Source of the DNA: Minisyncoccota bacterium
GTDB taxonomy: Bacteria > Patescibacteriota > Minisyncoccia > Phycocordibacterales > SBAW01
Direction: 5' to 3'
DNA: 64,000 bases
NCBI GenBank assembly: GCA_035546615.1
Contig: DASZWM010000007.1
Location: forward strand, 1 to 64,000
Positions 1 through 25,319 of the stretch are shown piece after piece (position 1 is the stretch's first letter; each line of letters opens with the position of its first letter). The position numbers and the translations under genes were made by a program. Below the pieces are notes generated by a model, which did no database searches, was not told the origin of the DNA, and worked only from the letters and a program-made list of their open reading frames with translations.

Positions 1-3000
1 GTTAATGGTCGAGATGGCGGTAATGCCGCTGGTCCTTGCAGCCTGGAGCGCCTCGGCCGGAACGTTCGTGCCGATACCGACATTACCCGCGATATATGCA
101 TTGCCGGTGGTCGTTGCGCCTCCATATATAGTGAGTCCCCCAGCCTGCGTTCCGTTGCCGATGGTTGAGGAAGCGTTTACTTGGATGCCGATGGTCGTGG
201 TCGGCGTAAGCGCGCCTGCCACGATCTTCCAGTCGCGGAACGCGTTGGCGTAGTAATTTTCTGAGGTAGTGCTGAAAGCAAGACCCTGCGACGCCCAGTA
301 GTTGGCGCTCGTGGTGGAGAAGAAGTTGTTTTGAGACTGCCAGTAGTTTGCAGAAGTGGTGCTGAAGGAATTCGCGAGGTAGAACGAGCCTTCGTTGCCG
401 TCGAGGGTGCCGGTCCAGTCGCCGGTGCGGTCCAGCGTGAGCGCGCCCCCGACGTTGGTGAGGCCGCTGCCGGTGAGGTCGGAGAAGTACTCGCTGTTGA
501 GGCCAAGGATGGACGTATATATAGAAGAGGAGGTGGCATTTGTGAGGGTAGTGTTGCCGTTAAAGCGGTTGGTGCCGCTGAAGGTGTTGTTGTCGGCAAG
601 GAGGGTCGACGAGGCGAACGTCCAGGTAGAGGTGGAGAAGGTGTAGAGCGTGCCGTTGGATGTGACGCCGAGGGCGCCATTTGCGTAGTTGGAGAGCTGC
701 ACCGTTCCGGTGGCAGTAAGGCTGCCGCCGAGGTACGTGTTGCCGCCGACCGAGAGCCGGGCGAACGGGCTGGTGGTGCCGATGCCGAGGTTGCCATTTC
801 CGTCCACGCGAGCGCGCTCAATGTTATTGGTACCGATCACGAACGGCTGCGCCGTAAGGGTGCCCACGTAGTAGCCGAGGTTCGAAGCGCCGTCGGCGAA
901 CATGAACAAGCGGTCCGCGCGCGGCGCGCCGAAGAGGCTGCCGAGGCTGCTTGAGGAACCGCCATAGAGGAAACCGCCGTACGATGCGAATGAACCGCGA
1001 TCGTTCTCAAGGTAGAACGACGCCTGATTGCTTGCGCTCGTGCCCTGGAAGTACGCGTTGTAATAGCCGGGATTCTTAACGCTGAGCGGGAATCCGGTCG
1101 TGGTATAAGAAGCCTGGATATCGAGCCGGGCGCTCGGCGACTGCGTGCCGATGCCGACGTTGCCCGCGATATACGCGTTCCCCGTCGTCGTCGCCGAGCC
1201 ATTTACCGTAAGGCCGAGCGTGCCGTTGCCGATGGTCGAGCTTGCATTAACGATGATGCCGAGCGTCGTGGTCGGCACGAGCGCGCCGTTGACTATCTTC
1301 CAGTCGCGGAAGGCATTGGCGTAGTAATTCTCAGACGTGGTCGAGAAGGCGAGGCCCTGAGATGAGAAGTAGGAAGCGGACGTGGTCGAGAAGAAGTTGT
1401 TCTGCGTCTTCCAGTAGTCGGCGCTAGTCGTGGAGAAGAAGTAGCCCTTATCGAAGAGGCTAAGGAAGTAGGTAGCCGATGTGGTCGAGAACGCGTTGCC
1501 CTGGTTCTGGCTCAAGAAGTAGACGGCCGAGGTAGTACTGAAGCTGTTGGCAAGATAGTACGAGCCTTCCTGTCCATCGAAGGTACCGGTCCAGTCGCCG
1601 GTGCGGTCCAAAGTGAGAACGCCACCAACGTTGGACAAGCCCGAGCCAGTTAGGTCGGTAAAGGTCTCGTTGTTGATGCCGAAGGAAGTGGTGGTTGCGT
1701 TAGTGGAGAGCAGGTTCGGGAGGACGTTCTGTGCCGAGGTGGTGGCAATATAGTTTGCCGCAACTACCTGGCCGACTACCGAGAGCTTGCTGTACGGCGA
1801 GGTGGTGCCGATGCCGAAGTTGCCGGCAGGTGCGATGACGTTATTAGAAGAGCCGACGGCGAGGTAGAGGTCATTAAGGCCGCCCGGGGTATAGATACCG
1901 GCATCGCTTGAACCGTCGACGTTGGTAGTGACGTGCGCGTCGCGGTTAAGCGTGATGCCGGAGGTGAAGTAACCATATCCGCCGCTTACTTGCAGGGCGG
2001 CAAGCGGATTGCTGGTGCCGATGCCAACGTTGCCGCTAAAATATGCGCGGCCAGTTGTGGTCGCCGGGCCGTTGACCGTAAGGCCGAGCGTGCCGTTGCC
2101 GATGGTCGAAGAAGCATTTACCTGGATGCCGAGAGTTGTTGTAGGCGTGAGCGCGCCTGCAACTATCTTCCAGTCGCGGAACGTGTTGGCATAGTAGTTC
2201 TGTGAAGTAGTGCTGAACGCGTTGCCCTGGTTGACAGAGAGGAAGTATGCGGCCGAAGTAGTAGAGAACGCCTGGCCCTGATTTTGCGCGAGGAAGTACA
2301 AAGCGCTGGTGGTCGAGAAGAAGTAGCCCTTGTCGAAGAGGCCGAGCGTCGTGGTGGAGAGGCGCGAGTTGAACGAGTTCCAATCGCTTGATGAGAGGTA
2401 GCCGTCGGTAGAAGCGCCCGACTGGCTGATGGTAAACACGCCGGTCGACGGGTTGTACGAGAGCGGGCCGGTTGCCGAGAGCGAGGTCGAGGAGATCTTG
2501 TTGTTGAAGGTGGTCCAGTCAGTGCTTGAGAGATAGCCGTTCTGCGCGCCGTTGGCCTGCTGGATGGACAAGGTATTGCCGGAGAAGGAGAGCGGACTCG
2601 AGACCGTGGTCGAGATGACGGAACCGTTTGCATTTGTGGAGAGAAGAGTGTTCAGGAGGCTGGTGATGGCGAGATTGGTCGTTGTCGCCTGCTGGGTCGT
2701 AAAATTGCCGCTCGCGTCGATCCTGGTCAAGACCGTGCCGGCGTTATTGAGGAACTGCGCCAAGTCCGCGGTCTGGGCCGAAGCGCCCTGTACCGTAAAG
2801 ACCTTCTTCGCGGCGCTTGAGTTAATGAGGCCGAAGAGCGATATAGGCACCGTCGTATTGGTCCAATTGAGGTCGGTTATCTGGGTCGAAGACGCATTGA
2901 ACTGCAGGCGGTTGAGCTGGGTGTCCGCGCCGTAGGTGCCGCCCATGAAGGTCGCGTTATTGTTGCTCGCGTTCGTTATCTGGAAGTACGTGGTCGAGGT

Positions 3001-6000
3001 CGCCGTGGCGCCGCCGCCCGTCCAGCCCCCGCTGTTATACACAACGCGCAGTTGGCCGCCGCCGCCCACGACATTGTCGCCCTTGAGGATGACGCCGTTG
3101 CCGGAGGTCTGGTTGTAGATGGTCGGGTTCGCGCCGACGGAGTTAAGCGTAAGCGTGTTGTTTGTAGAGTCGAATGCAAAGTCGGAATCATCGGTTATCT
3201 GGCTGCCTGCGCCGATAAAAGGCACGCGGCCGGCAGTGAGGCTCGTAACCCGCAGATTAGTGGTTGTCGCGGTGCCGTTTACCGTTAGGCCGCCGCCCGC
3301 CGCGCCGTTGCCAATCGTTGAGCTTCCGAAGACGCCGATGGATTGCACCGTCGAGCTTGGCGTGAGGAAGGCTGTAGCGCCGGAACCAACGATCTTCCAG
3401 TCACGGAACGCGTTGGCGTAGTAGTCCTGGGATGTGGTCGAGAATGCGCCGCCGGTCGAGGCCCAGTAATTTGCGGATGTGGTCGAGAAGAAGTAGCCCT
3501 TGTCGAAGAGAGCGAGCGTCGAAGTGGAGAGGCGCGAGTTGAAGGTGTTCCAGTCGGTCGACGAGAGATAGCCGTCGGTCGAGCCGCCGGACTGGCTGAT
3601 AGAGAACACGCCGGTTGAGACATTGTACGAAAGCGGGCCGGTCGCGGAGATAGAGGTGGAGCCGAGCAGGCCCAGCGTGTTGGTTGCAGTAAGGCTGTAG
3701 CCGCCGGTGCTGTTGCCTACCAGAATATTTCCGTACGAAGGAGCGGCCGAAAGTCCGGTGCCGCCGTACATGACGCCGAGCGATGAGGTTGCAACCACCG
3801 AGCCCTGCGCGTTGGTGGTAAGGAGCGCGGAGCGCACGCCGAGGATAGCCAGGCCGGTGGTCGTGGCGGTCGTCGTGGTGGAGTAGCGGCCGACGAAGTC
3901 GGTGAGCGTCGTGGTGCCCAAGACCGCGAGGCCGCCGCGGGAGAAGATGCCCGAGATGCCGACATTAATGCCCCCCTGCGCGTATATGTCGCCGCCGACA
4001 TTGAGGTTGTCGGCAATGTTCGCAACGCCGACCTCAAGCGAGCCGATGTTGGCGGCCGGGAGCTTCGCGCCGTTTATATCGACCACCTTCACCGTACTGC
4101 TGTTGCTGGTGACGTAGGCGTATTTGCCCGAGAGGCTCAGGCCGCGCGGGTTGCCGCCGGTCGCGAACGTGCCGACCGAAGTGATGCTCGCGAGGTTGTG
4201 CACGTCGAGCACGACGAGGTTGCCGGACGTGTCGGTAACGTACGCGTAGTCGCCGGCCGCCTCAACCGTGTAGTAGCCGGTGCCGGTCTTGGAGCCCGCC
4301 AGGCTGATGGAGGCCGGGTTGCTTATGTCGAGCACGTAGAGGCCGCCGGAAGCGTCCGCAACATAGAGGTAGCGGCCGGACGCGTACAAGGTCGCCGGAA
4401 CGCTCAGGCCGGTGTAGCTGTATACGGCCGTCGGGCTTGCCGGGTTGCTGATGTCGACGGAAGTGACGGAGCCGTTGTAGATGGAGCCCACGTACAGGTA
4501 CTTGCCCTGCACCGCGACCGAAGACCCCGAGCCGATAGGCGTGCCGGGGGACGAGTACTGGCCCACGATAACGGGCGCCGCCGGGTTGGCGATGTCGACG
4601 ATGTTGACCATGCCGGTGTCGAGGTTCGGCGCGTAGAGGTAGCGGCCGGAGAGCGCGAGCGAAATAGGATGGCCCGCGCCGGAGAGCGTGGAAACGAGGG
4701 TCGGTACCGCCGGGTTGGAGACGTCGATGATAACGAGACCCGCGGACGCGTCGCCGACGTACGCGTACTTGCCGGAGACTACGATGCTCTGCGCTTGGGT
4801 GGTGCCCGTGTAGGAGCCGACGAGCTTGGGGTTGCCCGGCTGGGTGATGTCGAGGATGCGCACGTTTCCGGCGGCAACGTAGGAGTAATGGCCGGAAGTG
4901 TTGATGCCGTATGAAGTCCCGCCGACTAAGGTCGAGGTCGCCAGGGTCGGCGTGCCGCTTGCCACCTGGAGTATATTGCCGCCCGCGACGGTGAGCTTCT
5001 GGGAAGGCGACGTGGTGCCGAAGCCGGCGAGACCGCCGAAGGACGCGATGCCCGAGTTGTAGAAGCCGGTCGTGGTGGCGTTGTCGATGGTCGCGCCTCC
5101 GACCACTTCGAGCTTGGAGAGCGTCGAGGTCGAGGTAAAGCCGATGAGCACCTGGTCGGTCGCGGTCGTCAGGCGGATGCCCGAGCCGTTGAAGTGGGTC
5201 CAGTTGACGTCCGAGCCGGACGCGCCCGCGTCGGTGCCGCACTGGAATTGTCCGGTCGCGGAGTTCCATAGGAGCTTGTCGACCGAGCCGGAGCAGGAAG
5301 AGAGGTTGGCGCCGGTTATCCTGCCGTTTATGTACAGGTTCGTCGTGGTCGAAGTGCCGCTCGTAATGACATCGCCCGGGAAGGTATACACGCTCGAGGA
5401 ATTGCCGCCGAAGGTTCCCGCCTGCGTGGTGATGACGCCGGTGGATGAGGTGTACGAGATGACCGACTGGCCCGAGAGGCTGGTCGAGGAGATCTTGTTG
5501 TTGAAGACGCTCCAGTCGGTATTTGTCAGGAAGCCCGGCTGGGAAGCGTTGGCCTTTTGAGCGCCGGCGTAGTCGATGGAGATAAGGCCGGCGCCGTTAT
5601 CGTTGAAGTCGGACGAAGCGAAGGATGCGGCGCCCTTAGTGCTGCCGTCTGCCTTCGCGTCCTGAATGGAGAACGTGCCGGAGCTTGGGTTGTAGAACAG
5701 CGGCGCGGTGGCGTTGAGCGAGCCGGTCGTAACGAGGCCGAGGCTCGAGGTCGAGGTAAGCGTGTACGTACCATTGCTGTTGCCCACCAAAAGGTTTCCG
5801 TAGCTCGGAGGGGTCGAGAGTCCCGTGCCGCCGTAGATGACCGAGAGCGTCGACGTTGCCGACACGGCGCCGTTAATGGCCTGCAGGGGTCCGGTGATGT
5901 TGGAGATGGTTACGCCGCCGTTGAATGTGTTGCTGTTCGTAAACGTATTGCTGGAGTAGGTCTTCGGAATCGTGCTTGATGCGTCGACGAAATGGATAGC

Positions 6001-9000
6001 CGACGTGGTTGAGAAGAAATTGTTCTGCGTCTTCCAGTAGTCGGCCGAACTGGTCGAGAAGCCGACGAGCGTCTGCTGGGAGAGGAAGTAAAGGGCTGAT
6101 GTCGTGGAGAACGCCTGACCCTGATTGACAGAGAGGAAATATGAAGCAGAAGTCGTGGAGAAGAAATTATTCTGCGTCTTCCAGTAATCGGCCGAGGTGG
6201 TGGAGAACGAGTTCGCGAGGTAGTACGAGCCTTCCTGGCCGTCCAGCGTGCCCGTCCAGTCGCCCGCGCGGTCGAGCGTCAATGCGCCGCCGACATTCAG
6301 GAGGCCGGAGCCGGTGAGGTCGGTGAAGTACTCGGAGTTGAGACCCAGTATCGCGGAGTACAGCGAGGTAGAGGTCGCGTTGGTGGTGGTGCCGAAGGTA
6401 ACGGTGAGAGCGGAAATGGTCGACGACGAGTATGCGGTGAGGCCTGCGCCGAACTGCTGCAAGGCGGCCCAGGTATTCGAGTTCGAGAGGTTAAGGCCCC
6501 AATCGCTTATCCCCGCGCTGCCGTCATAGCTTGAGCCGGCGAGCGTCGCGTTGTGGGAAAGCGCGCTGAGGCTGGTGCCGAGCTGCTTGCCGCTGATGGT
6601 CGAGTTAGTAAGTCCCGCGTTATCGAGCGTGCCGGAAAGCGTAGGGGCGAACGTGAATGCGCCGCCCGTGTTCGTTATCCTGATGCCGAGAGTCTGCCCG
6701 TTCTGCGTGAGCGTCGAGGTGGAAAGCGTAAGCGCGCCCGTCTGCGCCGTGCCGCCGCCGGTCTGCGAAAGCGACAGGACGCCGGTGTTTGAGATGACGC
6801 CCGTTGCGGGAACATAGCTGATGCCCGTACCCGCCGAGAGAGAAGTGGAGCCGAGCAGGCCCAGTGTGTTCGTGGCGGAGAGCGCGTAGCCGCCGGTGCC
6901 GTTCCCTACCAGAATGTTTCCGTACGACGGCGCTGCGGTCAGCCCCGTGCCTCCGTACAGGACGCCGACGGAAGAGGTTGCGGAAACTACGCCATTGATC
7001 GCCTGGAGCGGGCCGGTGAGGTTGGAGATAGTTACGCCGCCGTTGAAGGTATTGGAATTCGTGAACGTGTTGGCGGTGTAGGTCTTCGGGATGGTCGTGG
7101 AAGACGTAACGAACCACATAGCGGAAGTGGTGGAGAAGAAGTTATTCTGCGTCTTCCAATAGTCTGCAGAGGTAGTCGAGAACGCAAGATTCTGGTTATT
7201 TGCTAGGAAGTAGAGGGCGGAGGTGGTGCTGAAGGCATTGCCCTGGTTCTGCGAGAGGAAGTATGCGGCGCTGGTGGTCGAGAAGAAATAGCCCTTGTCG
7301 AAGAGGCCGAGGGTGGAGGTGGAAAGGCGGCTGTTGAAGGAATTCCAGTCCGTGCTTGAGAGATAGCCGTCGGTCGAGCCGCCGGACTGGCTGATAGTGA
7401 AAATACCGGTCGAAGAGTTATAGGCGAGCGGCGCAAGTGCCGAGAGGCTGGCCGGGGTAAGGAAGCCGAGGCTGGATGTCGGCGCAAGGTCGTAGCCGCC
7501 TGCGCTGTTGCCCAGGAGCACCTGGCCGTAGGCCGGAGCGAGCGTGAGGCCGGTGCCGCCGTACACGACACCGATGCTCGTAGTTGCCGACACGAGGCCG
7601 TTAATAGCCTGCAGCGGCCCGGTGAGATTGGAAACGTACAGCGAGTCGATGGTTGCGAGCGTTGTCGACGAAGTAAGGACGCGCGTGCTGGTGGCGAAGA
7701 AGCTGCTTGAGGTCGCGTTGGTAAACTTTGCCGTTGAGGGGGTCGTGGCGCCGATAGGCGTGCTGTTTATCGTGCCGTTCGAAATAGTGAGGTTGTCGGC
7801 TACGTACGCGTCGGCTACGATGCTGCCGTGCCAAACGCCGGTCGAGACGGTTCCGACGTTGGAGGAGCCGAGCACCGTCAGCGTGGTGAAGACCGCGCCC
7901 GGCGCGTTGAGCGTCGTGCCGTCGAAGGTGAAGGTATTGTCCCCGACGACCGCGTCTTCCGCCTGGTTGGTGAAGAATATCTGTCCTGCAACGTACGTAT
8001 CCGGCGCATCAGTGAGCCCGAGGAACGTGGTTGAGCCGCCTCCGCCGCCGGTGCCGCAGTCGCTGCCGGTGCCCGACACCACGCCCGCCGCGTTGACGCG
8101 CAAGCACTGCGTCGTACCGGTAATGGAGCCGAGCGTAAGTCCGCCCCCGAGCGTGAGCGCGCCGGTCGATGAGAACGTCGAGGTCGCCGTCGCGCCGAAG
8201 GAGGCCGACTGGTAGACCGAGAGCTTCGACGTGGAAGCCGCGTTGAACTGCTGGAGCTGGGACCAGGCGTTTGCGGTAGTGGTGCCGAAGGCGAGGCTGA
8301 ACTGTCCGGTGGTCTGGTTGTACTGGACCGGGTACGAACCGGAGATGCTGGTGGTGCCGAGCTTGCCGTTGAAAAGGGTCCAATCGCTCGAGGAAAGATA
8401 TCCGTTCGTTGAGCCGTTAGCCTGCGCGATGGAGAACACGCCGGTGTTCCCGTCGTACGAAAGCGGCGCGAGCGCGGAAAGCGACGATGTGGAGAGCAGG
8501 CCGTTGGCGGCGGCAAAGTAGCTTGCGGAAGTCGTGGAGAAGAAATTGCTGACCGACTTCCAGTACTCCGCGGAGGTGGTGCTGAAGGCATTGCCCTGGT
8601 TCTGCGAGAGGAAATACGCGGCCGAAGTTGTCGAGAACGCGTTGCCCTGGTTCTGGGCGAGGAAGTATGCGACGCTGGTGGTTGAGAAGAAATTATTCTG
8701 CGTCTTCCAGTAGTCAGTCGAGGTGGTCGAGAAGAAATTGCTGACAGACTTCCAGTACTCAGCGGATGTCGTGGAGAAGCCGGTCGAGGTGCCGCCGAAC
8801 ATGATGCCGAGGCTGGAGGTCGAGACGAGGTCGTAGCCGCCGGTTGCGTTTCCGACAAGCACCTGGCCGTAGGCCGGCGCGGTCGTCGTGCCGGTGCCGC
8901 CGTTTGCAACGCCGAGCGTGCCGCCGAGCACCAAAGTACCCGAGGACGTGATGGGGCCGCCCGTGAAGGAGAGCCCGGTGGTGCCGCCGTTGGCTGCAAC

Positions 9001-10629
9001 CGATGTTACCGAGCCGCCGCCCGAGCCGCCCAGGCCCAGAGTCGAGGTTGAGGTTACAGCCCACTTCACGCCGTCCCACACCAGCACGTCGCCGAACGCG
9101 CCGCCGCCGATGTGCGGCACCGTTGAGGAAGCGGAGATGTACGCGCCGACAGCATAGTTGCTGGAAGTGGTGGAGAAGAAGTCGCGAGCCGTCTTCCAGT
9201 AGTCGGCGGAGGTGGTGGAAAATCCGCTAAGGCTCTGAAGCGAGAGGAAGTATGCCGCTGAGGTTGTAGAAAATGCCTGGCCCTGATTTTGGCTGAGGAA
9301 GTACGCGGCGGAGCTGGTCGAGAAGAAGTAGCCCTTGCCGATGGAGTCGAGATACGCCTGCGCGTTCTGCGGCGTGAAGTACAGGTTGGTGGCGCCTTCG
9401 TCGAGGCCGTCGGTCGTGGTCGCGTACCACGCGGAGAGCGACAGCTTCGAGTCAAGCGCGTTCTGGAGATCGGTTTGGTTGGAAAGCGTGCCGACGATAT
9501 TGCCCCACGACGGATTGCCGCCCGCGGCGATGCCGAGCGTCGAGGTGGAAACCAGGTCGTAGCCGCCCATGGAATTGCCGAGAAGGAGCTGGCCGTAGGT
9601 CGGGGCAGTGGAAGTGCCGGTGCCGCCGTTTATCGCATTGAGCACGCCGGAGAGCGTGAACGTGCCGGTCGACGTGATAGGCCCGCCGAGGAAGGAGAGG
9701 CCGGTCGTGCCGCCGCTTGCGTCAACCGACGTTACCGAGCCGTTCCCGCCGCCCGAATTGCCGCCGCCGTTGTGGCTGTGCGAAGGGTTCGGCGAAAGCG
9801 CCGCGGCCTCTATTTTCGGGAGAAGGAAATTCTGCAGCGCGAGCAGGCGGAGGTTGAGTATGTCTTCGGTGACGCCGGAACCCTGCACCAGACGCTCGGT
9901 AACCGGATAGGTGTTGTAGACCGGGTACGAGTTCTGGACGATCGTCGTGGTCGCGGTGCCTGCGGCGACCGGAGCAGACGGGCCGTACGCCGGCGAGGTC
10001 TGCGTGCCCGCCGCATACTGCGCGGGAACGCGCGGGCCGAAGAGGAACGAAAATACCTGCGAGAAGACATCGGACGCGACAGACGGCGATGACTTCGCCG
10101 GAAGGGAGAATCCGAACTGGAGCGGATGCGCCCCGAAGAACGGCGACTCCACCTGCGCGAGCGACGCCGCAAGCGTGGTCTGGTTCTGCATCGCGACCTC
10201 GCGCTGGTGCATCGCGCCGGCGTACGCTACGGCGCCGAAGAGCAGCATGCCCCCCAGCGCCATCACCGCGTTGCGCGCCAGAAGCGAAGAGAAGCGCGAG
10301 GCGACGCCGTTCGCGGAAGGAACGGCGTCGGCCTCAACCGCCTTCTTCGCAGGCAGGCCGTTTGCCTTGCGGTACGTCTCGTTCTCAAGCTTGCGCTCCT
10401 TCGCTAACGCAGACGCGCGCTCAAGCTTTGCCTGAGCGCGCGCCGCCTCGAATTCTCCAAGGGACTTCTCCTCGACGAACCATGCGCCGTTTATCTGCGA
10501 GCCGCGCAGCTTGCCGTCGCGCAAAAGGCGGCCGACATAGTCCTGAGCGCAGTTCATCCGCTTGGCGGCAGAACGGGCCGAGAGCATCGGTTCGCCTGAA
10601 TTTGAGATGATTTGTTTAGCGGGTGACAT
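1..10629 (-). CDS. Giant repetitive cell-surface protein, 3' partial (at least 3543 aa in window; stop lies beyond window start). N-terminal HTH_17-like domain, coiled segment, single TM helix, then Gly/Ser/Thr-rich repeats, FSTTSA-type 16-aa tandem repeats and a 7-blade LVIVD beta-propeller. Alternative start ATG 10587.
   Basis: Revcomp of 1-60 gives ...GIGTNVPAEALQAARTSGITAISTIN, revcomp of 4981-5040 gives ...SFGGLAGFGTTSPSQKLTVAGG, and the ATG at 10629 is in frame with the codon ending at nt 1 (10629 = 3 x 3543). No listed ORF on either strand in 1-10600 carries the FSTTSA repeats, so the true frame is uninterrupted and lacks an in-window stop. All listed ORFs here are Ser/Thr/Pro/Arg-rich alternative-frame artefacts. 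Confidence 0.8.
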   Translation of the reverse strand, partial: MSPAKQIISNSGEPMLSARSAAKRMNCAQDYVGRLLRDGKLRGSQINGAWFVEEKSLGEFEAARAQAKLERASALAKERKLENETYRKANGLPAKKAVEADAVPSANGVASRFSSLLARNAVMALGGMLLFGAVAYAGAMHQREVAMQNQTTLAASLAQVESPFFGAHPLQFGFSLPAKSSPSVASDVFSQVFSFLFGPRVPAQYAAGTQTSPAYGPSAPVAAGTATTTIVQNSYPVYNTYPVTERLVQGSGVTEDILNLRLLALQNFLLPKIEAAALSPNPSHSHNGGGNSGGGNGSVTSVDASGGTTGLSFLGGPITSTGTFTLSGVLNAINGGTGTSTAPTYGQLLLGNSMGGYDLVSTSTLGIAAGGNPSWGNIVGTLSNQTDLQNALDSKLSLSAWYATTTDGLDEGATNLYFTPQNAQAYLDSIGKGYFFSTSSAAYFLSQNQGQAFSTTSAAYFLSLQSLSGFSTTSADYWKTARDFFSTTSSNYAVGAYISASSTVPHIGGGAFGDVLVWDGVKWAVTSTSTLGLGGSGGGSVTSVAANGGTTGLSFTGGPITSSGTLVLGGTLGVANGGTGTTTAPAYGQVLVGNATGGYDLVSTSSLGIMFGGTSTGFSTTSAEYWKSVSNFFSTTSTDYWKTQNNFFSTTSVAYFLAQNQGNAFSTTSAAYFLSQNQGNAFSTTSAEYWKSVSNFFSTTSASYFAAANGLLSTSSLSALAPLSYDGNTGVFSIAQANGSTNGYLSSSDWTLFNGKLGTTSISGSYPVQYNQTTGQFSLAFGTTTANAWSQLQQFNAASTSKLSVYQSASFGATATSTFSSTGALTLGGGLTLGSITGTTQCLRVNAAGVVSGTGSDCGTGGGGGSTTFLGLTDAPDTYVAGQIFFTNQAEDAVVGDNTFTFDGTTLNAPGAVFTTLTVLGSSNVGTVSTGVWHGSIVADAYVADNLTISNGTINSTPIGATTPSTAKFTNATSSSFFATSTRVLTSSTTLATIDSLYVSNLTGPLQAINGLVSATTSIGVVYGGTGLTLAPAYGQVLLGNSAGGYDLAPTSSLGFLTPASLSALAPLAYNSSTGIFTISQSGGSTDGYLSSTDWNSFNSRLSTSTLGLFDKGYFFSTTSAAYFLSQNQGNAFSTTSALYFLANNQNLAFSTTSADYWKTQNNFFSTTSAMWFVTSSTTIPKTYTANTFTNSNTFNGGVTISNLTGPLQAINGVVSATSSVGVLYGGTGLTAAPSYGNILVGNGTGGYALSATNTLGLLGSTSLSAGTGISYVPATGVISNTGVLSLSQTGGGTAQTGALTLSTSTLTQNGQTLGIRITNTGGAFTFAPTLSGTLDNAGLTNSTISGKQLGTSLSALSHNATLAGSSYDGSAGISDWGLNLSNSNTWAALQQFGAGLTAYSSSTISALTVTFGTTTNATSTSLYSAILGLNSEYFTDLTGSGLLNVGGALTLDRAGDWTGTLDGQEGSYYLANSFSTTSADYWKTQNNFFSTTSASYFLSVNQGQAFSTTSALYFLSQQTLVGFSTSSADYWKTQNNFFSTTSAIHFVDASSTIPKTYSSNTFTNSNTFNGGVTISNITGPLQAINGAVSATSTLSVIYGGTGLSTPPSYGNLLVGNSNGTYTLTSTSSLGLVTTGSLNATAPLFYNPSSGTFSIQDAKADGSTKGAASFASSDFNDNGAGLISIDYAGAQKANASQPGFLTNTDWSVFNNKISSTSLSGQSVISYTSSTGVITTQAGTFGGNSSSVYTFPGDVITSGTSTTTNLYINGRITGANLSSCSGSVDKLLWNSATGQFQCGTDAGASGSDVNWTHFNGSGIRLTTATDQVLIGFTSTSTLSKLEVVGGATIDNATTTGFYNSGIASFGGLAGFGTTSPSQKLTVAGGNILQVASGTPTLATSTLVGGTSYGINTSGHYSYVAAGNVRILDITQPGNPKLVGSYTGTTQAQSIVVSGKYAYVGDASAGLVIIDVSNPAVPTLVSTLSGAGHPISLALSGRYLYAPNLDTGMVNIVDIANPAAPVIVGQYSSPGTPIGSGSSVAVQGKYLYVGSIYNGSVTSVDISNPASPTAVYSYTGLSVPATLYASGRYLYVADASGGLYVLDISNPASISLAGSKTGTGYYTVEAAGDYAYVTDTSGNLVVLDVHNLASITSVGTFATGGNPRGLSLSGKYAYVTSNSSTVKVVDINGAKLPAANIGSLEVGVANIADNLNVGGDIYAQGGINVGISGIFSRGGLAVLGTTTLTDFVGRYSTTTTATTTGLAILGVRSALLTTNAQGSVVATSSLGVMYGGTGLSAAPSYGNILVGNSTGGYSLTATNTLGLLGSTSISATGPLSYNVSTGVFSISQSGGSTDGYLSSTDWNTFNSRLSTSTLALFDKGYFFSTTSANYWASTGGAFSTTSQDYYANAFRDWKIVGSGATAFLTPSSTVQSIGVFGSSTIGNGAAGGGLTVNGTATTTNLRVTSLTAGRVPFIGAGSQITDDSDFAFDSTNNTLTLNSVGANPTIYNQTSGNGVILKGDNVVGGGGQLRVVYNSGGWTGGGATATSTTYFQITNASNNNATFMGGTYGADTQLNRLQFNASSTQITDLNWTNTTVPISLFGLINSSAAKKVFTVQGASAQTADLAQFLNNAGTVLTRIDASGNFTTQQATTTNLAITSLLNTLLSTNANGSVISTTVSSPLSFSGNTLSIQQANGAQNGYLSSTDWTTFNNKISSTSLSATGPLSYNPSTGVFTISQSGASTDGYLSSSDWNSFNSRLSTTTLGLFDKGYFFSTTSALYFLAQNQGQAFSTTSAAYFLSVNQGNAFSTTSQNYYANTFRDWKIVAGALTPTTTLGIQVNASSTIGNGTLGLTVNGPATTTGRAYFSGNVGIGTSNPLAALQVSGGYGYFTSGITLNRDAHVTTNVDGSSDAGIYTPGGLNDLYLAVGSSNNVIAPAGNFGIGTTSPYSKLSVVGQVVAANYIATTSAQNVLPNLLSTNATTTSFGINNETFTDLTGSGLSNVGGVLTLDRTGDWTGTFDGQEGSYYLANSFSTTSAVYFLSQNQGNAFSTTSATYFLSLFDKGYFFSTTSADYWKTQNNFFSTTSASYFSSQGLAFSTTSENYYANAFRDWKIVNGALVPTTTLGIIVNASSTIGNGTLGLTVNGSATTTGNAYIAGNVGIGTQSPSARLDIQASYTTTGFPLSVKNPGYYNAYFQGTSASNQASFYLENDRGSFASYGGFLYGGSSSSLGSLFGAPRADRLFMFADGASNLGYYVGTLTAQPFVIGTNNIERARVDGNGNLGIGTTSPFARLSVGGNTYLGGSLTATGTVQLSNYANGALGVTSNGTLYTFSTSTWTFASSTLLADNNTFSGTNRFNGNTTLTNATSSSIYTSILGLNSEYFSDLTGSGLTNVGGALTLDRTGDWTGTLDGNEGSFYLANSFSTTSANYWQSQNNFFSTTSANYWASQGLAFSTTSENYYANAFRDWKIVAGALTPTTTIGIQVNASSTIGNGTQAGGLTIYGGATTTGNAYIAGNVGIGTNVPAEALQAARTSGITAISTIN

Positions 10630-10966
10630 GTTGCCGAAAAAACTTTTGTTTGTGCGGAGAGTTCGGGTATTTCGTGTTTCAACAGAAGAGGTAGCGACCC
10701 GCCGATGTGCCGCTACCCTGTTACTAATTATTTTACGCGAGTGTCGCGCTTTTTCCGTCTATAATATGCGAAGAAAAATGTGGATATCTTATTGCACTGC
10801 AACGGAATTTTGAAAATTTATTTTCAAAAAATAATCAGCTTAAAATGAGTTTGCTGTTTAAAATTCCATGAAAAAATATTCGGCTTACATACCCTTTTCT
10901 CGTCTTAAAAATTGTATAGGAGAGATATGTTGTAATCAAAAGCTACATCGGCTCTCCCATACGATA

Positions 10967-10997
10967 TCTCGGATAACTTCTCGGCTAATCTCGGATA
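10967..10997 (-). promoter_or_regulatory. Three direct repeats TCTCGG(A/C)TA spaced 12 and 10 bp (one helical turn), in the AT-rich region upstream of the giant gene; candidate transcription-factor binding sites
   Basis: tctcggata (10967), tctcggcta (10979), tctcggata (10989), read directly from sequence; sits in the 500-bp low-GC intergenic region 10630-11138. Confidence 0.3.
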
Positions 10998-11065
10998 GCT
11001 TCATAATGCTATTTTACCTCCTAAGTATGCCGGAGGGGCAAAAAACCAAGTTCTAGTATTAAAAA

Positions 11066-11099
11066 CGGCGTCTTTTGACAAGTTGTCAAACTGACGCCG
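11066..11099 (-). terminator. Rho-independent terminator of the 11139-11978 gene. Imperfect 16/17-bp stem cggcgtcttttgacaa / ttgtcaaactgacgccg with a TTGACAA-G-TTGTCAA core, followed on the minus strand by TTTTT
   Basis: Inverted repeat read from sequence; T-run is the revcomp of aaaaa at 11061-11065; located 40 nt after the stop at 11139. Confidence 0.55.
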
Positions 11100-11138
11100 A
11101 ATACTAAATAAAATATGAATTCGAAAATCTGACGCGAT

Positions 11139-11978
11139 CTAATGCAAAGAGTAGCCGACGCTTGCGGTCTTCCCCGCTTCTATGACCGTCGTTGAATTGA
11201 CGAGCAGTGAGCTCAGCGCGACGACCGCGAACACGACGGCGCCGAGCGTCATGATGCTGAATGCCGGCATGAGCATGCCGACGGAATATTTTTTTGACGG
11301 CGCGTATTCCGTTATTGTCACTTCCTCGTCCGCGTCCTCTTCTGCCGCTTTCGGCATGACCGACGCTTTCGCTTTTTTGCTTGCGGGCTTCTGTATTTCC
11401 GGCAGCGAAGGCGCCGCGTCTTCTATATAGCGCAGGCCCGTCTTTTTCTTTGTCTCCGCAAGGCGTATCGGGATATGTATAGATTCGCGCGCCGCTTCGG
11501 GCTCTATCTCCACAAAAACTTTTTCTTCCGCCTCTTCAACTTTTATTTCTTCAGGCGCGAAGTCTGCTATCAGCTCTTCCACTTGGATCGGGCGGCGGAA
11601 ACTTTGTATCGGTTCCGGAATGACGGGAGCAGTCGCCTCAGCTTCGGTCTCCTCTTCTTCAGCTGTCTCTTCTTCTTTTTCCGCAGCCGGCTCCGGCTTC
11701 TCTTCCTCGGTCTCAGCGGGTTCCGGAACTTCTTCAGCCGCTTCGGCACGCACGACGGGCGCTACCGAAAGTATCTTCTTCGGCTCCTCCGCCGGCTTCG
11801 GGTTCTTGAGGTAGTCAGCCAGAAACTCGGCATCCACATACCAGGAGCGGCCCACTTTCTGGCCCACTATCTTTTTGGCGCGTATGAGCTGGCCGATATA
11901 GTCGGCATGGTATTTATACTGCTTTGCGGCAAGCCGAGTCGAGATATACCGCTTGCCCGAGATTTCCAGTTCGTCCAT
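11139..11978 (-). CDS. Membrane-tethered HTH_17 (excisionase/MerR-like) domain protein, 279 aa. N-terminal HTH, about 170-aa Glu-rich acidic linker, C-terminal TM helix
   Basis: N-term ISTRLAAKQYKYHADYIGQLIRAKKIVGQKVGRSWYVDAEFL fits the HTH_17 pattern (AAxxLxVSxxTVYRLIxxGxLPAxRIGRxWRI). C-term MLMPAFSIMTLGAVVFAVVALSSLLV is hydrophobic. N-term is paralogous to the giant gene N-term LSARSAAKRMNCAQDYVGRLLRDGKLRGSQINGAWFVEEKSL. Confidence 0.7.
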   Translation of the reverse strand: MDELEISGKRYISTRLAAKQYKYHADYIGQLIRAKKIVGQKVGRSWYVDAEFLADYLKNPKPAEEPKKILSVAPVVRAEAAEEVPEPAETEEEKPEPAAEKEEETAEEEETEAEATAPVIPEPIQSFRRPIQVEELIADFAPEEIKVEEAEEKVFVEIEPEAARESIHIPIRLAETKKKTGLRYIEDAAPSLPEIQKPASKKAKASVMPKAAEEDADEEVTITEYAPSKKYSVGMLMPAFSIMTLGAVVFAVVALSSLLVNSTTVIEAGKTASVGYSLH

Positions 11979-12032
11979 GCACTTAGAATATACCTCTGGC
12001 CGAGGTACGCAAGCAAGGGGCGGAAAATGAGC

Positions 12033-13442: not shown

Positions 13443-13501
13443 ATATAGCAGAAGCGGCCTCTTTATAGAAGCTACCTATTCTGGACTTCGTAAGTCCAGA
13501 A

Positions 13502-15601
13502 TTACTGCCCCAGCAGATAGAGCTGCCTGACCTCCGCAGCCGGGAGCGCGCGGTTGTAGACGCGCACATCGTCGAGCTTGCCGTTGAAGGTATACATAGC
13601 CCCGCTTCCGTTTCCCATGCTGCCGATATATGTATTAAAAGAAGCGGGCGTACCGGGATCGGTGGTCTGCGCGGAGGAAGCATCGAGGGAGCCGTTGATG
13701 TATATTTTCTTTGTCGCCCCGTCGTAGGTAAAGACGACATGCGTCCATGTAGAAGTCGCTATCGTAGCGGCGGATACGATCTGGCTCAGCGAACTGTTCC
13801 AAATGCCTCCCGAGACCTTTCCTGCTTGTATGTACATATCTATGCCTTTGTACGTGCCGCAGCAGTCCCGGGCGTTGCTGTACACGTAGTTGTATAGATA
13901 GGTCTGAGGAGTATTGTCGTATATCCATGCGGAAATAGTAAATCGGCTCGGGGTCAGCGAATTGCTGCTGCCCACATTTATTCCGCCGGTATTCATCCCG
14001 CTAAAACTGAACCCCTGTCCCATCCTGCCTATCGTCTTGCGGCTCGAAGTGGCGTTGTTGGTACCGACTAAGTATCCATTAAAACCACTCCCCGAACGGT
14101 CGTACACCTTGTCGGTTACGTCCGGCCCGTCGAAGGTCCAGAGGCCGACCAGCCCGCTTGAGAGGCTGCTGTCGGAAGACAAGTCGGGTGAAGGCGTATT
14201 TATCTGTGCGGTACCCTGCCTATATAAGGCCGCTATTTCCGCCGCCGAGAGCGCGCGGTCGTAGATGCGCACATCGTCCATGAGGCCGCCGAAGAACGAG
14301 GCGGAAGGATTGATATTGGCGTCCTTGCCGATAAAGAGGACGCTCGGTGCTGTGAGCGACTGGGTCCCCCCGGTACCCGTGTTGTCAAGAACCCCGTTCA
14401 CGTACACTGTCATGGCGCCGGTCGATTTGACGCGGGTCGCGGTTACGAGCACCCAATTGCCTGTGTTAACATCGGCATTCGAGAATACGGTCGTATCAGA
14501 GTTACCGACGCCGAAAGCAAGTTTGCCGTTATAAACCGTCATGCCGAAGTCGTTCGTTACGCCCCCGACTTCGCCGTCTACTATCCCCTGCCCGCAGTAC
14601 CATTGCCCTGCGCAGCCCGCGGTATTCTGCGTCGTCTTTATCCATGCGGAGAGCGTGAAGTCGTCCGATACGGTGCGATTGACGGGTATATAGCTGGTGC
14701 TCCCGTCGAACAAGAGCGCCTTGCCGTGCTTTCCGCTTGCCCAGGCCGGAAGCGTCGAGCCGGAGAGCGTCCCGTCGTTGCTATTGCCGCTTGAGTCCCC
14801 CGCAATAGTACCCGTACCCTCGTTGAAGTCCCACGAGCCGACGAGGCCGACGTTGTTAGGCGCGCGCACCTGCGCCGCCCCGCCCCTGTACAGAGCGACG
14901 ATTTCCGCATCCGACAACGCGCGATTGTAGAAACGGAAATCATCAATCGTCCCGACGGTAGGCTCGCCGCCCGAATACTTTCCCAATATCCAGGAAGACT
15001 TCGCAATGCTGGTGGTGTCTGTCTGGGCGCTTCCCAGTGACGCGCCATTCACAAAAACGGACACATTCGAGCCGCTTCTCTTTGCAACAATGTTGTACCA
15101 AACGCCTGCCGCGGGGGTAAACGGCCAGCTGAGCGTATGAGGCCCGGAAGGCGTTCCCCGTATGTATAGCATCACCACATGCGCCGTATTATCGAACTCG
15201 ATCAATACTCCGGCGGTTCCCGCATATCCGCCGTCAAATGTCGTCTGGTAGCGCGCGGGGAAGCCGTCGAACCTGATCCAATGAGAAATAGTAAAATCTC
15301 CCGTTCCTATCTGGAATGCGTCGCTGACCGGGATGCTTACGTAATTGTCGCTGTTCGTGAATGAAAGGCCCTTGCTGAACCTGCCCGTAACCCATGTTGG
15401 CAGCGTGGTGCCCGAGAGCGTGCCTATGTGGCCGTTCCCGCTCAAATCGCCCAGCTTAGTTCCCGAGGCGTCGTTGAAGCTCCAGTACGCTATGAGCCCT
15501 AAATTATTCGCGGGTTTGGCAAGCGCGGCGGCCTGCGCGGCGGCGGGCAGAAAAAATGCCGCGAATATGAAACATATCGCGATGCCGGGAAATACCCTCA
15601 T
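13502..15601 (-). CDS. Secreted protein with signal peptide and three tandem LamG-like (concanavalin A-like lectin/glucanase, Laminin_G_3) domains
   Basis: Signal peptide MRVFPGIAICFIFAAFFLPAAAQAAA. Three repeats begin with LxxxWxFxxxxGxxxxDxSGxGxxGTL and end with IDDFRFYNRALSDAEIVALY / MDDVRIYDRALSAAEIAALY / LDDVRVYNRALPAAEVRQLY. Confidence 0.7.
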   Translation of the reverse strand: MRVFPGIAICFIFAAFFLPAAAQAAALAKPANNLGLIAYWSFNDASGTKLGDLSGNGHIGTLSGTTLPTWVTGRFSKGLSFTNSDNYVSIPVSDAFQIGTGDFTISHWIRFDGFPARYQTTFDGGYAGTAGVLIEFDNTAHVVMLYIRGTPSGPHTLSWPFTPAAGVWYNIVAKRSGSNVSVFVNGASLGSAQTDTTSIAKSSWILGKYSGGEPTVGTIDDFRFYNRALSDAEIVALYRGGAAQVRAPNNVGLVGSWDFNEGTGTIAGDSSGNSNDGTLSGSTLPAWASGKHGKALLFDGSTSYIPVNRTVSDDFTLSAWIKTTQNTAGCAGQWYCGQGIVDGEVGGVTNDFGMTVYNGKLAFGVGNSDTTVFSNADVNTGNWVLVTATRVKSTGAMTVYVNGVLDNTGTGGTQSLTAPSVLFIGKDANINPSASFFGGLMDDVRIYDRALSAAEIAALYRQGTAQINTPSPDLSSDSSLSSGLVGLWTFDGPDVTDKVYDRSGSGFNGYLVGTNNATSSRKTIGRMGQGFSFSGMNTGGINVGSSNSLTPSRFTISAWIYDNTPQTYLYNYVYSNARDCCGTYKGIDMYIQAGKVSGGIWNSSLSQIVSAATIATSTWTHVVFTYDGATKKIYINGSLDASSAQTTDPGTPASFNTYIGSMGNGSGAMYTFNGKLDDVRVYNRALPAAEVRQLYLLGQ

Positions 15602-15610
15602 GCCTCTATA

Positions 15611-16582: not shown

Positions 16583-16584
16583 GT

Positions 16585-16920
16585 CTAAAGTGCGGCGTTG
16601 AGCGCCCAGGCGACTATCGTGAGTATGACCGAGCCTTCAAGCGCGGGAATGAATCCGGCCACGCTGAAGCCCGGCACGAATGCCGCAAGCAGCCAGAACA
16701 TCAAGGCGTTCAGGATGAAAGAGAACAGCCCGAACGTAATGAGGTTTATAGGAAGGGTCAGGAGCCCCAGTATCGGGCGGATAGTGAGCCCCATAAGGCC
16801 CCATACTATCGCCGCGATAAGCGCGGTCGTGAAGCTCGCCACCGCGATGCCGGGGATGAAATTAGCGATAAGGAGTATGGCCGCCGCCGTTGCAAGCACC
16901 TTGAGCAGGATTTTTATCAT
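16585..16920 (-). CDS. Small 4-TM membrane protein, DUF360 / phage holin family IV-like
   Basis: 111 aa, entirely hydrophobic helices; pattern GLFSFILNALMFWLLAAFVPGFSV typical of DUF360; 3 nt after obg stop. Confidence 0.55.
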   Translation of the reverse strand: MIKILLKVLATAAAILLIANFIPGIAVASFTTALIAAIVWGLMGLTIRPILGLLTLPINLITFGLFSFILNALMFWLLAAFVPGFSVAGFIPALEGSVILTIVAWALNAAL

Positions 16921-16937
16921 ATGCCTATAGTAGTTGA

Positions 16938-17663: not shown

Positions 17664-17687
17664 TTCGCTATTGTAGCGTATCTAAGC

Positions 17688-18173: not shown

Positions 18174-18592
18174 GCTGTTAATACTACAATACAAACGCTG
18201 TTTGAGCCGCTTGTCCTCATAAGACACCGGCGAAAGGACGGTCAGGTGCCGGCCCCGCGCACATGTGTGCGCCCTCGGCAAGTATCTGAAGTAGCGGAGT
18301 TTTCGGGAGGTTTTTGAGGCTTCACTGAAAAATCTCTCCCTGGGTCTCATCTGGGATACAAAATGAGCGCGGACTTGTTGACCTGCGATAGTGGTCGAGA
18401 TAAGACCCCGGATAGGTGGACCGGCTCCCGACCTCGAGGCGGAACAACTCGTTAAAAAGCCTTTCGGGACTGTGCATGGCAGTATATCCCGTAAAGACTG
18501 CCTAGGGTGTAAGCGGGACCACCGACCAAAGAAAAGCCCGCGACGTATCCAAGAAAAGAGATATAGCTTGAGGCTCGAATGCCTCCACACTG

Positions 18593-23039: not shown

Positions 23040-25319
23040 TTATTGTCCAGGTTTTAGAGTGCCGTTCTTTATATTCGTGATAAGCCCCTGCACCTGTCCC
23101 GCCGCCGCGGGATTGAGCCTGATGACCTCTTCGAGCTCGGCGATGGTCTCGGCGGTCTTCCCTGCGGTGAAGTACGCGGAGGCGAGCTGCACGTGCATAT
23201 TGGCGTCGTTCGGATTCTTCGCGACCCGAGCCTGCCAGACGGCGACGATGCGGCCGTACTGCTTGGTGTCGGTATATATCTGGAGGAGCTGGTCGTTATC
23301 GACCGCCGTGGTGCCGTACGCCTGCATAAGCAGCGCATCGGCTGCGGCGTTCTGGCCGGCGTAGTACAGGGCGCCGGCGTAGGCGATGCGCGCCTGCTCG
23401 TAATCGGGCGATAGGTCGAAGGCTTTCTTGAAGGCGGCCAGGCCGTTGCTCAAATCGCCCTTCTGTATATAGGTCTGGCCCTCTTGGAAGAGGATCTGCT
23501 GCTTGCCCGGCGAGAGCTTCGCGGCCGTAGCCAAATGCTTAAGCGCATCGTCGTACTGGCCGTACTGGGTCAGGAACAGGCTGTCGAACAACTCAAGGCG
23601 CGCGTCATTCTTACGCTGAGCAAGCATCGCGTCTCCCGCGGCGCGCGTATAGGCGTATACGGTTTGGGTCAGCTCCGGGCTCGCGCCGGAAGAAGCCTGC
23701 CGCAGGCCGTTTGCGAACTGGAAGAGCTGTTCCGTGGTTTCCTGCCGGCCGAGCTCGGCCCCGTCGTCGAGTGCCGCCTTGAAGGAGGCGAACCGCTTGT
23801 CCGGCGTGCGCGGCGCGCCCGTGGGCTCGTTCGTCTGCAGGCCGTCGATAATGGTCTGCGCGCGCGCCATGCCGCCGGCGTTGAGCATCCACGCTCCGCC
23901 GAGCACCAGCACGGCCACAAGCGGCGCGACTATGGCGACCGTATGGTCATTAACGGGCCTGAGCCAGAACATCCACCGCGGCAGCGCCTTCCACGAAAGC
24001 ACGTGGAGGTACGCCAGCAGCAGGAAGAAGTACGCGATGCTCAAAAGGTTGTCGAACACGAACAGGTTGTTGAAGGCGTAGGCCGCCAGAAGGCCCAGCA
24101 ATACGGCCTGCTCGGGGCTGGTAAGCTCAGCCGAGCGGAGTATCGCCCACACGCCAAGCCCGAACAGCGATATGTACAAAAGGAGCGCCGGAACGCCGCC
24201 GGCGACGAACCAGTCGAGAAATTCGTTGTGCGCGCGGTCGAACCACTGCTCCTGCGCCCACATGGCCGGATTGTAATGCTCGTTGAATATGTAGCTGAAG
24301 TTCTCCTGGCCCCAGCCGGTAACCGGCTTCTCGAGCGCGCCCTGCACGGCCATAGGCCATATATAGAAGAGGCGGGCCTTGGTCGTGCCGTCCTCAAGCG
24401 ATATAGACGCGAGGCGTCCGAGGCCGGGAGAGTTGCGGACGAAGTCCGTATCCTTCACCGCGATGAAGAGCGCCGCGCATATCGCGATGACGCCAAGCGC
24501 TCCCCATGACGCGCGGCGAAGCGTCCTGTACTGCTCTTCCCTGGCGCGCAGCGCCACGTATACGGCGGCCACGATAAGCCCGCCCACAAAGCCCAAAAGC
24601 GCGCCGCGGGTCTCGGTAAAGTAGAGCGCCGGCAACTCGAGCAGGAGCGCGATGCCGTAGAGCGTCAATGCGGTCGGCGACCTGCGGTCGCGCACCATCA
24701 TATAGAGCGTCAGGAAGAGGTTGAGCAGCATGAACACGGCCAGGTACGTCGCGTTGCCGAAGCTGGTATCGGCGCGCACGCCGGACTGGGTCGAGGGCGA
24801 CAGGCCGAACAGGTGGAACACCTGGAAAAGCGCGTAGATGCCTTGCGTTGCTGCTACCGCTATAGAGATGCGGAAGAACGCGTCCCACCAGCGCGACGCG
24901 TTGAATACTGCGCCGGCCACCACGAACAGCGCGAACAGGTGTATGACGGTAATGTAGCCGTCCATGCGCTCGAAGTTGCTCCAGAAGCTCTTTATCGGGT
25001 CGACGCTCAGCGCGGTCGCAAGAGCCATCCACAGCACGAACGCGCCGGCGGCCCACATAAGGTACGAGGCCTTGGGGCGGTATGCCGGCTCCTTTATCGC
25101 GAGTATGGCGTACAGCAGGACGATAAGCTCGACGAGCAGGCGGAACACGAAGTTCTTGCCCGTAATGTACGGGAAGTACATGGCCGGCACCCAGCCGCTG
25201 CCGGCGACGATAAAGGAGATGCACGGGACGGCGCACAGCCCGCCGATAATAGCCCAGCGCAGATAGGTGGTATACGACATACGCGACACTATACCACAAC
25301 ACAGGCCGCCGATCCCCAA
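23040..25319 (-). CDS. O-antigen ligase family (Wzy_C-like) polytopic membrane protein with C-terminal TPR repeats
   Basis: About 12 TM helices in the first 450 aa, then TPR-like repeats (LAAFKKAFDLSPDYEQARIAYAGALYYAGQ...). Start may be internal (MSYTTYL). Confidence 0.7.
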   Translation of the reverse strand: MGIGGLCCGIVSRMSYTTYLRWAIIGGLCAVPCISFIVAGSGWVPAMYFPYITGKNFVFRLLVELIVLLYAILAIKEPAYRPKASYLMWAAGAFVLWMALATALSVDPIKSFWSNFERMDGYITVIHLFALFVVAGAVFNASRWWDAFFRISIAVAATQGIYALFQVFHLFGLSPSTQSGVRADTSFGNATYLAVFMLLNLFLTLYMMVRDRRSPTALTLYGIALLLELPALYFTETRGALLGFVGGLIVAAVYVALRAREEQYRTLRRASWGALGVIAICAALFIAVKDTDFVRNSPGLGRLASISLEDGTTKARLFYIWPMAVQGALEKPVTGWGQENFSYIFNEHYNPAMWAQEQWFDRAHNEFLDWFVAGGVPALLLYISLFGLGVWAILRSAELTSPEQAVLLGLLAAYAFNNLFVFDNLLSIAYFFLLLAYLHVLSWKALPRWMFWLRPVNDHTVAIVAPLVAVLVLGGAWMLNAGGMARAQTIIDGLQTNEPTGAPRTPDKRFASFKAALDDGAELGRQETTEQLFQFANGLRQASSGASPELTQTVYAYTRAAGDAMLAQRKNDARLELFDSLFLTQYGQYDDALKHLATAAKLSPGKQQILFQEGQTYIQKGDLSNGLAAFKKAFDLSPDYEQARIAYAGALYYAGQNAAADALLMQAYGTTAVDNDQLLQIYTDTKQYGRIVAVWQARVAKNPNDANMHVQLASAYFTAGKTAETIAELEEVIRLNPAAAGQVQGLITNIKNGTLKPGQ

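Follow-up and report, generated by a model that had tools for sequence, protein, structure and literature searches.

Tandem FSTTS repeats in a giant, putatively membrane-anchored protein of a Paceibacterota bacterium, a candidate stalk of a cell-surface fibre

The shafts of the adenovirus fibre and of reovirus sigma1 are triple beta-spirals of repeats of about 15 residues, and the 16-residue repeats of ice-nucleation proteins form a beta-solenoid. In bacteria belonging to the Candidate Phyla Radiation (CPR), giant membrane proteins of 1392–4163 residues have been described in the epibiont Vampirococcus lugosii, where they are proposed to form a fibrous surface and to mediate host attachment; a single membrane was seen in this organism, and CPR bacteria are thought to be without an outer membrane (PMC8080830). 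For the CPR bacteria, or Patescibacteria, which account for a large share of bacterial diversity and are mostly uncultured, giant surface proteins provide some of the few clues to host attachment, and nearly all of the sequence of these proteins is unannotated. Here we analysed a 64,000-nucleotide stretch of a Minisyncoccota genome (positions 1 to 64,000 of contig DASZWM010000007.1, assembly GCA_035546615.1), hereafter the window, one end of which is occupied by a giant gene whose product carries short tandem units of the type FST[TS]S (FSTTS units). We propose, with about an even chance of being right, that these units serve as structural repeats of the stalk, or as spacers, in a membrane-anchored and probably trimeric cell-surface fibre or adhesin of an uncultured, ultra-small CPR (Paceibacterota) bacterium.

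From position 10758 down to position 1, the minus strand of the window is one uninterrupted frame of 3586 codons, still open at the end of the contig. The first and likely start codon is the ATG at 10629, which gives a protein of at least 3543 residues with its C-terminus beyond the sequenced end. Because this protein matches exactly, in length and in sequence, a database protein (P0007 in our searches; NCBI HVV15503.1, 'hypothetical protein VHD55_03845, partial [Candidatus Paceibacterota bacterium]'), the gene is real and is annotated solely as hypothetical. A regular expression and a hidden Markov model (HMM) of the unit agree on exactly 32 FST[TS]S units in eight arrays along this protein and on no further arrays (Table 1), against a mean of 0.12 and a maximum of 2 occurrences in 2000 composition-preserving shuffles. 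The initial annotation, made from the letters alone, had described at least eight arrays of three to six copies of a unit of roughly 16 residues with two alternating flavours. All eight places were matched and the repeat is real, but the unit has two lengths, 15 residues (FSTTSADYWKTQNNF type, ...YWKTQNNF) and 17 residues (FSTTSAAYFLSQNQGNA type, ...YFLSQNQGNA), with one unit of 18 residues, and the copy number is two to six. Nor is the alternation strict: with W for the 15-residue flavour, F for the 17-residue flavour and x for the 18-residue unit, the orders in arrays 1 to 8 are FFW, WWFFW, FFW, WFFW, W, FF, FFWx and WW, and a divergent terminal unit closes every array. The arrays total 521 residues, or 14.7% of the giant protein, and are 22% aromatic and 33% Ser/Thr.

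At the DNA level these units are far less alike than their peptides. Peptide-identical units differ at 13–20% of their nucleotides, the Ser at motif positions 2 and 5 is encoded by both codon families (all four TCN plus AGC/AGT) and the Thr positions by all four codons. DNA copies of the units and of larger modules are 60–80% identical, and Tandem Repeats Finder reports just two weak arrays (75–81% matches). The weakness of these arrays and the codon divergence of identical peptides rule out a recent DNA tandem duplication or slippage artefact; because the codons and DNA of peptide-identical units have diverged, the repeats are old, and purifying selection on the peptide has kept them.

The arrays all fall at fixed junctions between modules. 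One of two leaders, '...LFDKGYF' or '...GS[YF]YLANS', precedes seven of the eight, their long forms being '...GYLSSxDWxxFNxRLSTSTLGLFDKGYF' and '...DLTGSGLxNVGGxLTLDRxGDWTGTxDGxEGS[YF]YLANS', and in seven arrays the divergent terminal unit is '...S[ST]T[IV]P...' or 'YYANxFRDWK'. The TIPKTY terminator of arrays 3 and 4 leads into a '[LI]TGPLQAING...GGTG......YG..L[LV]GN' module (TVPHIG stands at this place in array 1), and the 'YYANxFRDWKIV...' terminator into a GIGTxxP segment. Array 2 differs on both sides, being preceded by '...GIMFGGTSTG' and ending on '...SYFAAANGLLS'.

The giant protein also contains at least four further recurring modules, likewise unrecognised by Pfam. Counted as residues of the open reading frame (ORF) from window position 10758, GGTG......YG..L[LV]GN occurs in six copies (residues 378, 620, 1067, 1269, 1643 and 2332) and GYLSSxDWxxFN in five (786, 1131, 2396, 2741 and 2786); DLTGSGL...GDWTGTxDGxEGSYYLANS is present three times and YYANxFRDWK...GIGTxxP four times. 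The GGTG module, predicted as beta hairpins, is the only part for which the AlphaFold2 (AF2) models described below reach a predicted local distance difference test score (pLDDT) above 80.

No named family accounts for the repeat, in agreement with the initial annotation, which had recognised none. With the window protein as query, Pfam-A 2025 returned LVIVD alone and nothing over the arrays, NCBIfam r20 no match, and PHROGs v4 one weak match outside the arrays; in 92+3+5 family members, no curated family covered the arrays. Against PDB sequences, phmmer with the giant protein (E<=1) and hmmsearch with a three-unit profile (E<=10) both gave 0 matches. Full-text literature searches on the motif FSTTS returned unrelated papers only, and searches on CPR, tail fibres and giant proteins nothing specific. 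The three-unit profile (A1), built from the window arrays, was searched exhaustively against 1.84 billion representative proteins and matched 316 protein clusters at E<=1e-3, of which 211 reach E<=1e-10 and 68 reach E<=1e-30; the proteins are 135–5533 residues long. The window protein is the second-best match (E 3.5e-153), as expected of a profile built from its arrays. A word-indexed protein search gave just 5, then 37 matches, all below 400 residues and all unnamed; it is the exhaustive HMM search that makes the family visible.

The window protein has at least two tandem F-S-T-[TS]-S-A-x-Y-[WF] units at a spacing of 15, 17 or 18 residues, which is how the family is defined. The proteins listed hold 1663 units, with consensus forms FSTTSADYWKSQGNF, FSTTSASYFLSQNQGAA and FSTTSANY[LW]LSTYDKGYF, distributed over 428 arrays of 1–23 units each, with 1–21 arrays per protein. 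A spacing of 15 residues is the commonest (842 of about 1240), those of 17 (263) and 18 (90) being also frequent; 15-residue units dominate, and the commonest transition is from one of them to another. Among the first 60 members inspected, the majority have a signal peptide, or an HTH_17 domain and a transmembrane (TM) segment, at their start, which points to a surface location. A few members have a Peptidase_S74 or Peptidase_G2 chaperone, a weak C1q match, or immunoglobulin-like, LRR_5 or GH18 domains; Peptidase_S74 was found in P0009 and in 2 of 92 aligned members, and the C-terminus of the protein at locus L041 is similar by eye. The GIGTxxP motif is present in 48 of 148 members, and a functional name in one member only (P0129, 'trimeric autotransporter adhesin', from the Joint Genome Institute). 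The S74 and G2 chaperones, the weak C1q match, GIGTxxP and this single name argue for the fibre character of the family, and the fibre-like spacer suggested initially agrees with this architecture and with the homologues.

A scan of one genome per species yielded 89 confirmed stretches in 70 loci. Patescibacteria or CPR labels apply to 61 of these loci (Paceibacterota, Parcubacteria, Kaiserbacteria, Adlerbacteria, Nomurabacteria, Minisyncoccia and many 'uncultured Ca. Saccharibacteria'), two are labelled just 'uncultured bacterium', and seven belong to Alphaproteobacteria. The isolate Bradyrhizobium sp. AUGA SZCCT0431 (L072, 298–19781) encodes a protein of 422 residues with a matching module kit in a prophage-like region of low guanine plus cytosine (GC) content (0.52), together with a weak major-head match, a phage-type HNH endonuclease, a metallophosphoesterase and an Erf recombinase. 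In Hyphomicrobium sp. RBC040 (L044, NZ_CADEFI010000008.1, 272–19726), a 1584-residue protein made of a helix–turn–helix (HTH) domain, a TM segment and FSTTS units is encoded on an integrative element whose tyrosine integrase adjoins tRNA-Arg(CCT) and which also has a Replic_Relax protein, a CHC2 primase and a papain-like protease. The repeat is further present on 14 IMG/VR viral contigs. On one of them (L073), a protein of 1787 residues and 24 units (about 7463–12646) follows minor-tail, tape-measure, tail and tail-fibre genes and comes directly after the last. Another (L077) is the genome of a true tailed phage: it has genes for terminase, portal and protease, its major head protein shares about 32% identity with the counterparts in Pseudomonas phages such as JBD67 and JD18, and its 21-unit FSTTS protein (9014–12853) is encoded between the head genes and the tape-measure gene. 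The capsid, portal, tape-measure and fibre homologues of the phage contigs have their best matches across many phyla, at 25–47% identity, and tblastn of the window super-module and the Bradyrhizobium protein against deposited phage genomes (50,697 records) gave no match, the viral copies of the repeat all coming from uncultivated IMG/VR contigs.

The N-terminal segments of the window protein bear on its location in the cell. An HTH_17-like segment near the start was placed by alignment to the homologue P0019 (Table 1); Pfam detects no HTH_17 in the giant window protein itself, detects it in 7 of 92 family members and leaves it below threshold in P0006 and P0016. A single hydrophobic segment, the putative membrane anchor, comes next, and past it lie about 3400 charge-poor, T/S/G/N-rich residues. 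From these sequence features we infer a protein whose N-terminus is cytoplasmic, which crosses the membrane once and which continues outside the cell as a very long fibre, in which the LVIVD region, the sole Pfam-recognised part, is described as a globular insert between fibre segments. An LVIVD-like motif occurs in just 1 of 148 representatives of the FSTTS family. As a separate observation, an HTH_17-type (excisionase/MerR-like) segment with a single TM segment at the start of a giant extracellular protein (10210–10587, minus strand) recurs in many family members, in CPR bacteria and in Hyphomicrobium elements, which would place a DNA-binding-type domain at the cytoplasmic end of a surface fibre.

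To describe the unit itself, AF2 was run on two monomers, a super-module of the window protein (ORF residues 1020–1250, 42-row alignment) and the compact relative P0028 (436 residues, 12 units by regular expression, 92-row alignment). A short alpha-helix at unit positions of about 5–12 comes out in 15 of 16 units over the two runs, both models being of low confidence (mean pLDDT 63.6 and 53.7, 45–65 inside the arrays, and a predicted template modelling score of about 0.25). The conserved positions are F1, Y8 and W/F9; the hydrophobic residues are clustered (Y8, W/F9, L10) and not alternating, and no Gly or Pro is conserved in mid-unit. T4/S5 followed by D/E at position 7 resembles what we take to be an N-capping box, and the enrichment in G/N at the other end of the helix presumably marks its C-cap. 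Acidic residues at position 7 and basic ones at position 10 covary (odds ratio 14, Fisher p 1.6e-85, a figure that overstates the evidence, as the units are not independent). The structure prediction thus gave a helix per unit, at low confidence and with no packing, and not the beta-solenoid that had been put forward at first, against which the cap residues, the adjacent aromatics and the want of an alternating beta pattern also speak.

If the FSTTS units are stalk repeats, each would form one short alpha-helix (positions of about 5–12) with T4/S5 as N-cap and G/N as C-cap, and the D/E7–K10 pair would stabilise the helix of the 15-residue flavour. The invariant aromatics (F1, Y8, W/F9 and the unit-end F/A) would stack between successive units to make a rod, and probably also between the chains of a homotrimer. 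The number of units (1–23 per array in the family) would set the length of the rod, and with it the spacing of beta-rich and globular modules such as the LVIVD region, and the whole fibre would most likely serve attachment to another cell. Several points weigh against this proposal. The AF2 models are of low confidence and predict no tertiary packing, and Foldseek of the low-confidence model returned nothing at E<1; the low confidence would fit an obligate oligomer. The covariation between positions 7 and 10 may partly reflect descent from two ancestral flavours and not a physical contact. Accessory domains of a few homologues are the sole ground for a trimer, and the sequence of the window protein ends before its C-terminus. 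Lastly, the phage-borne FSTTS proteins (L073 and L077, also L074, L076 and L080) begin with signal-peptide-like hydrophobic N-termini, unusual for virion fibres, because of which the phage-encoded members may be secreted or lysogenic-conversion surface proteins and not virion fibres.

There are two other readings, both of which we consider unlikely. One is that the arrays form beta structure, as a monomeric beta-solenoid like that of ice-nucleation proteins or as a trimeric triple beta-spiral like that of the adenovirus fibre. That 15 of 16 units share the register of their AF2 helix argues otherwise, as do the clustered hydrophobics without a mid-unit Pro/Gly turn, the i/i+3 acid–base covariation, which suits a helix and not a strand, and the failure of any Pfam ice-nucleation or fibre-repeat model to match; this has to be set against a dominant 15-residue period equal to that of the adenovirus and reovirus shaft repeat, and a protein that is fibre-like and probably trimeric, for which a low pLDDT is compatible with a trimeric beta fold. 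Monomeric AF2 often fails on trimeric beta fibres. The other, which we judge no more probable, is that the units bind a glycan or cell-wall ligand, in the manner of choline- or glucan-binding repeats, and tether the fibre to the polysaccharide of the cell's own envelope or of a host envelope. The aromatic content of the arrays, their N/Q/S/T-rich composition and the conserved F1, Y8 and W/F9 would suit such a role, as would the multivalent copies, the extracellular character of the proteins and the Laminin_G_3 lectin-like and other surface genes nearby, but no CW_binding or carbohydrate-binding family matched, the arrays occupy internal module junctions throughout the protein in place of a terminal binding domain, and a unit number of 1–23 is as expected for a spacer. 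That the arrays serve as flexible Ser/Thr-rich linkers, perhaps O-glycosylated and only transiently helical, beads-on-a-string tethers in place of a rigid rod, is the least probable of the three, for although every unit has an STTS cluster, pLDDT is <50 in the inter-helix loops and AF2 shows no tertiary contacts, the invariant aromatics, the exact 15/17 spacing and the fixed leaders and terminators across 316 diverged clusters are atypical of linkers.

The distribution of the family invites a wider and, in our estimate, improbable extension of the stalk proposal. The GGTG...YG..LLVGN and GYLSSxDW modules, the FSTTS arrays, GIGTxxP and the S74 chaperone would together be an attachment kit derived from phage tail fibres, built on a new helical shaft fold and shared horizontally by CPR episymbionts and by alphaproteobacterial (Bradyrhizobium, Hyphomicrobium) phages and integrative elements; the one line of evidence for it is co-occurrence. 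Were this so, CPR bacteria would anchor the kit in their own membrane by the N-terminal HTH and TM segments, and ultra-small bacteria and viruses exploiting the same host surfaces would use homologous receptor-binding fibres. That the repeat also occurs in tail modules of phages and in mobile elements of Alphaproteobacteria suggests an exchange of fibre modules between phages and CPR cells. In any event, the definition of the repeat (consensus, unit lengths, leaders and terminators, about 316 clusters) provides an annotation handle and a candidate new fibre-shaft motif.

Table 1. Features of the window in and around the giant gene.
Feature	Position	Strand	Description
Giant ORF	1..10629	minus	Frame open up to 10758; C-terminus runs off window start
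HTH_17-like N-terminal segment	10459..10587	minus	MLSARSAAKRMNCAQDYVGRLLRDGKLRGSQINGAWFVEEKSL; alignment to homologue P0019
Hydrophobic segment, putative membrane anchor	10210..10269	minus	AVMALGGMLLFGAVAYAGAM; single; sequence inspection
LVIVD repeat region	4075..4908	minus	6 Pfam stretches, E 3.5e-49
Array 1	9127..9324	minus	4 units (17, 17, 15, terminal); leader ...GKGYF; terminator of TVPHIG type
Array 2 (flagged initially)	8491..8778	minus	6 units (15, 15, 17, 17, 15, terminal)
Array 3	7087..7284	minus	4 units; leader ...LFDKGYF; terminator ...SSTTIPKTY
Array 4	5965..6207	minus	5 units; leader ...GDWTGTLDGQEGSYYLANS; terminator ...SSTIPKTY
Array 5	3394..3489	minus	2 units; leader LFDKGYF; terminator YYANAFRDWK
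Array 6	2167..2319	minus	3 units; leader LFDKGYF; terminator YYANTFRDWK
Array 7	1297..1542	minus	5 units, one of 18 residues ending DKGYF; terminator YYANAFRDWK
Array 8	226..366	minus	3 units; leader ...GSFYLANS; terminator YYANAFRDWK
279-residue ORF	11139..11978	minus	No Pfam match
699-residue protein	13502..15601	minus	Three Laminin_G_3 (concanavalin-like lectin) stretches
759-residue protein	23040..25319	minus	Wzy_C O-antigen-ligase-like, fused to TPR repeats

The neighbourhood of the giant gene is that of an ordinary bacterial chromosome, with gatB, obg, secA, murB, a DsbD-type membrane protein, a Laminin_G_3 protein and a Wzy_C/TPR protein, at a GC content of about 0.59; the gene is chromosomal, lies downstream of gatB and is not within a phage tail module. 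The 279-residue ORF separates gatB from the giant gene and lies directly upstream of the giant gene, close to which are two further envelope genes, those of the 699- and 759-residue proteins. In a related metagenome contig (L001; GCA_037975565.1, JBBCBH010008326.1, 2055–20489), gatB is followed by the fibre gene as in the window, and the fibre region is broken into more than 15 called genes of 66–1409 residues, which suggests a frameshifted assembly or pseudogenisation. A plus-strand feature at 8500–8800 was considered and rejected, none being found there; DNA of about 59% GC commonly gives rise to ORFs that overlap a gene in its other frames, as seen here.

Compared with the systems described so far, the FSTTS repeat family is absent from the libraries and literature searched, and tandem shaft repeats of surface and viral fibres are a familiar kind. 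Ice-nucleation repeats are likewise tandem, short and rich in Ser/Thr, are close to it in unit length and have a conserved core of the S-T-x-T type, whereas FSTTS units have no Pfam match to them, a variable period, short (2–6 units) and scattered arrays and a predicted helix. Like the FSTTS repeat, the adenovirus and reovirus shaft repeats are tandem units of about 15 residues in viral attachment fibres, with a variable copy number that sets the length; the two have no sequence similarity, and the FSTTS pattern is clustered, predicted helical and switches between 15, 17 and 18 residues. Of the features of a triple beta-spiral, the 15-residue period is thus found, and alternating hydrophobics, a conserved Gly/Pro turn and beta structure are not (on AF2 models of low confidence).

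The S74-ended tail fibres and tailspikes of phages share with some FSTTS proteins the Peptidase_S74 or G2 domain and GIGTxxP, and with FSTTS proteins generally a charge-poor, T/S/G/N-rich composition, and one member is encoded directly after a tail-fibre gene. Unlike them, the repeat is in no PHROGs model and in 0 of 50,697 deposited phage genomes, and the window protein is encoded on the chromosome, has a putative membrane anchor and is about 10 times the typical fibre length, its sequence ending before the C-terminus; a location in a phage tail module is seen in relatives such as L073 and not for the window gene. The trimeric autotransporter adhesin stalks (YadA, AtaA) are likewise very long modular surface fibres in which short stalk repeats alternate with globular inserts, but the putative anchor of the window protein is an N-terminal TM segment, and Pfam finds no YadA_stalk, HIM, Hep_Hag or anchor domain in the window protein, as far as its sequence extends, or in 95 relatives. 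The giant proteins of Vampirococcus are characterised by domains already known (WD40, PKD, integrin, fibronectin), and that study makes no mention of the FSTTS repeat (PMC8080830); like the window protein, they are giant, membrane-localised proteins of a CPR bacterium for which a role in attachment is proposed.

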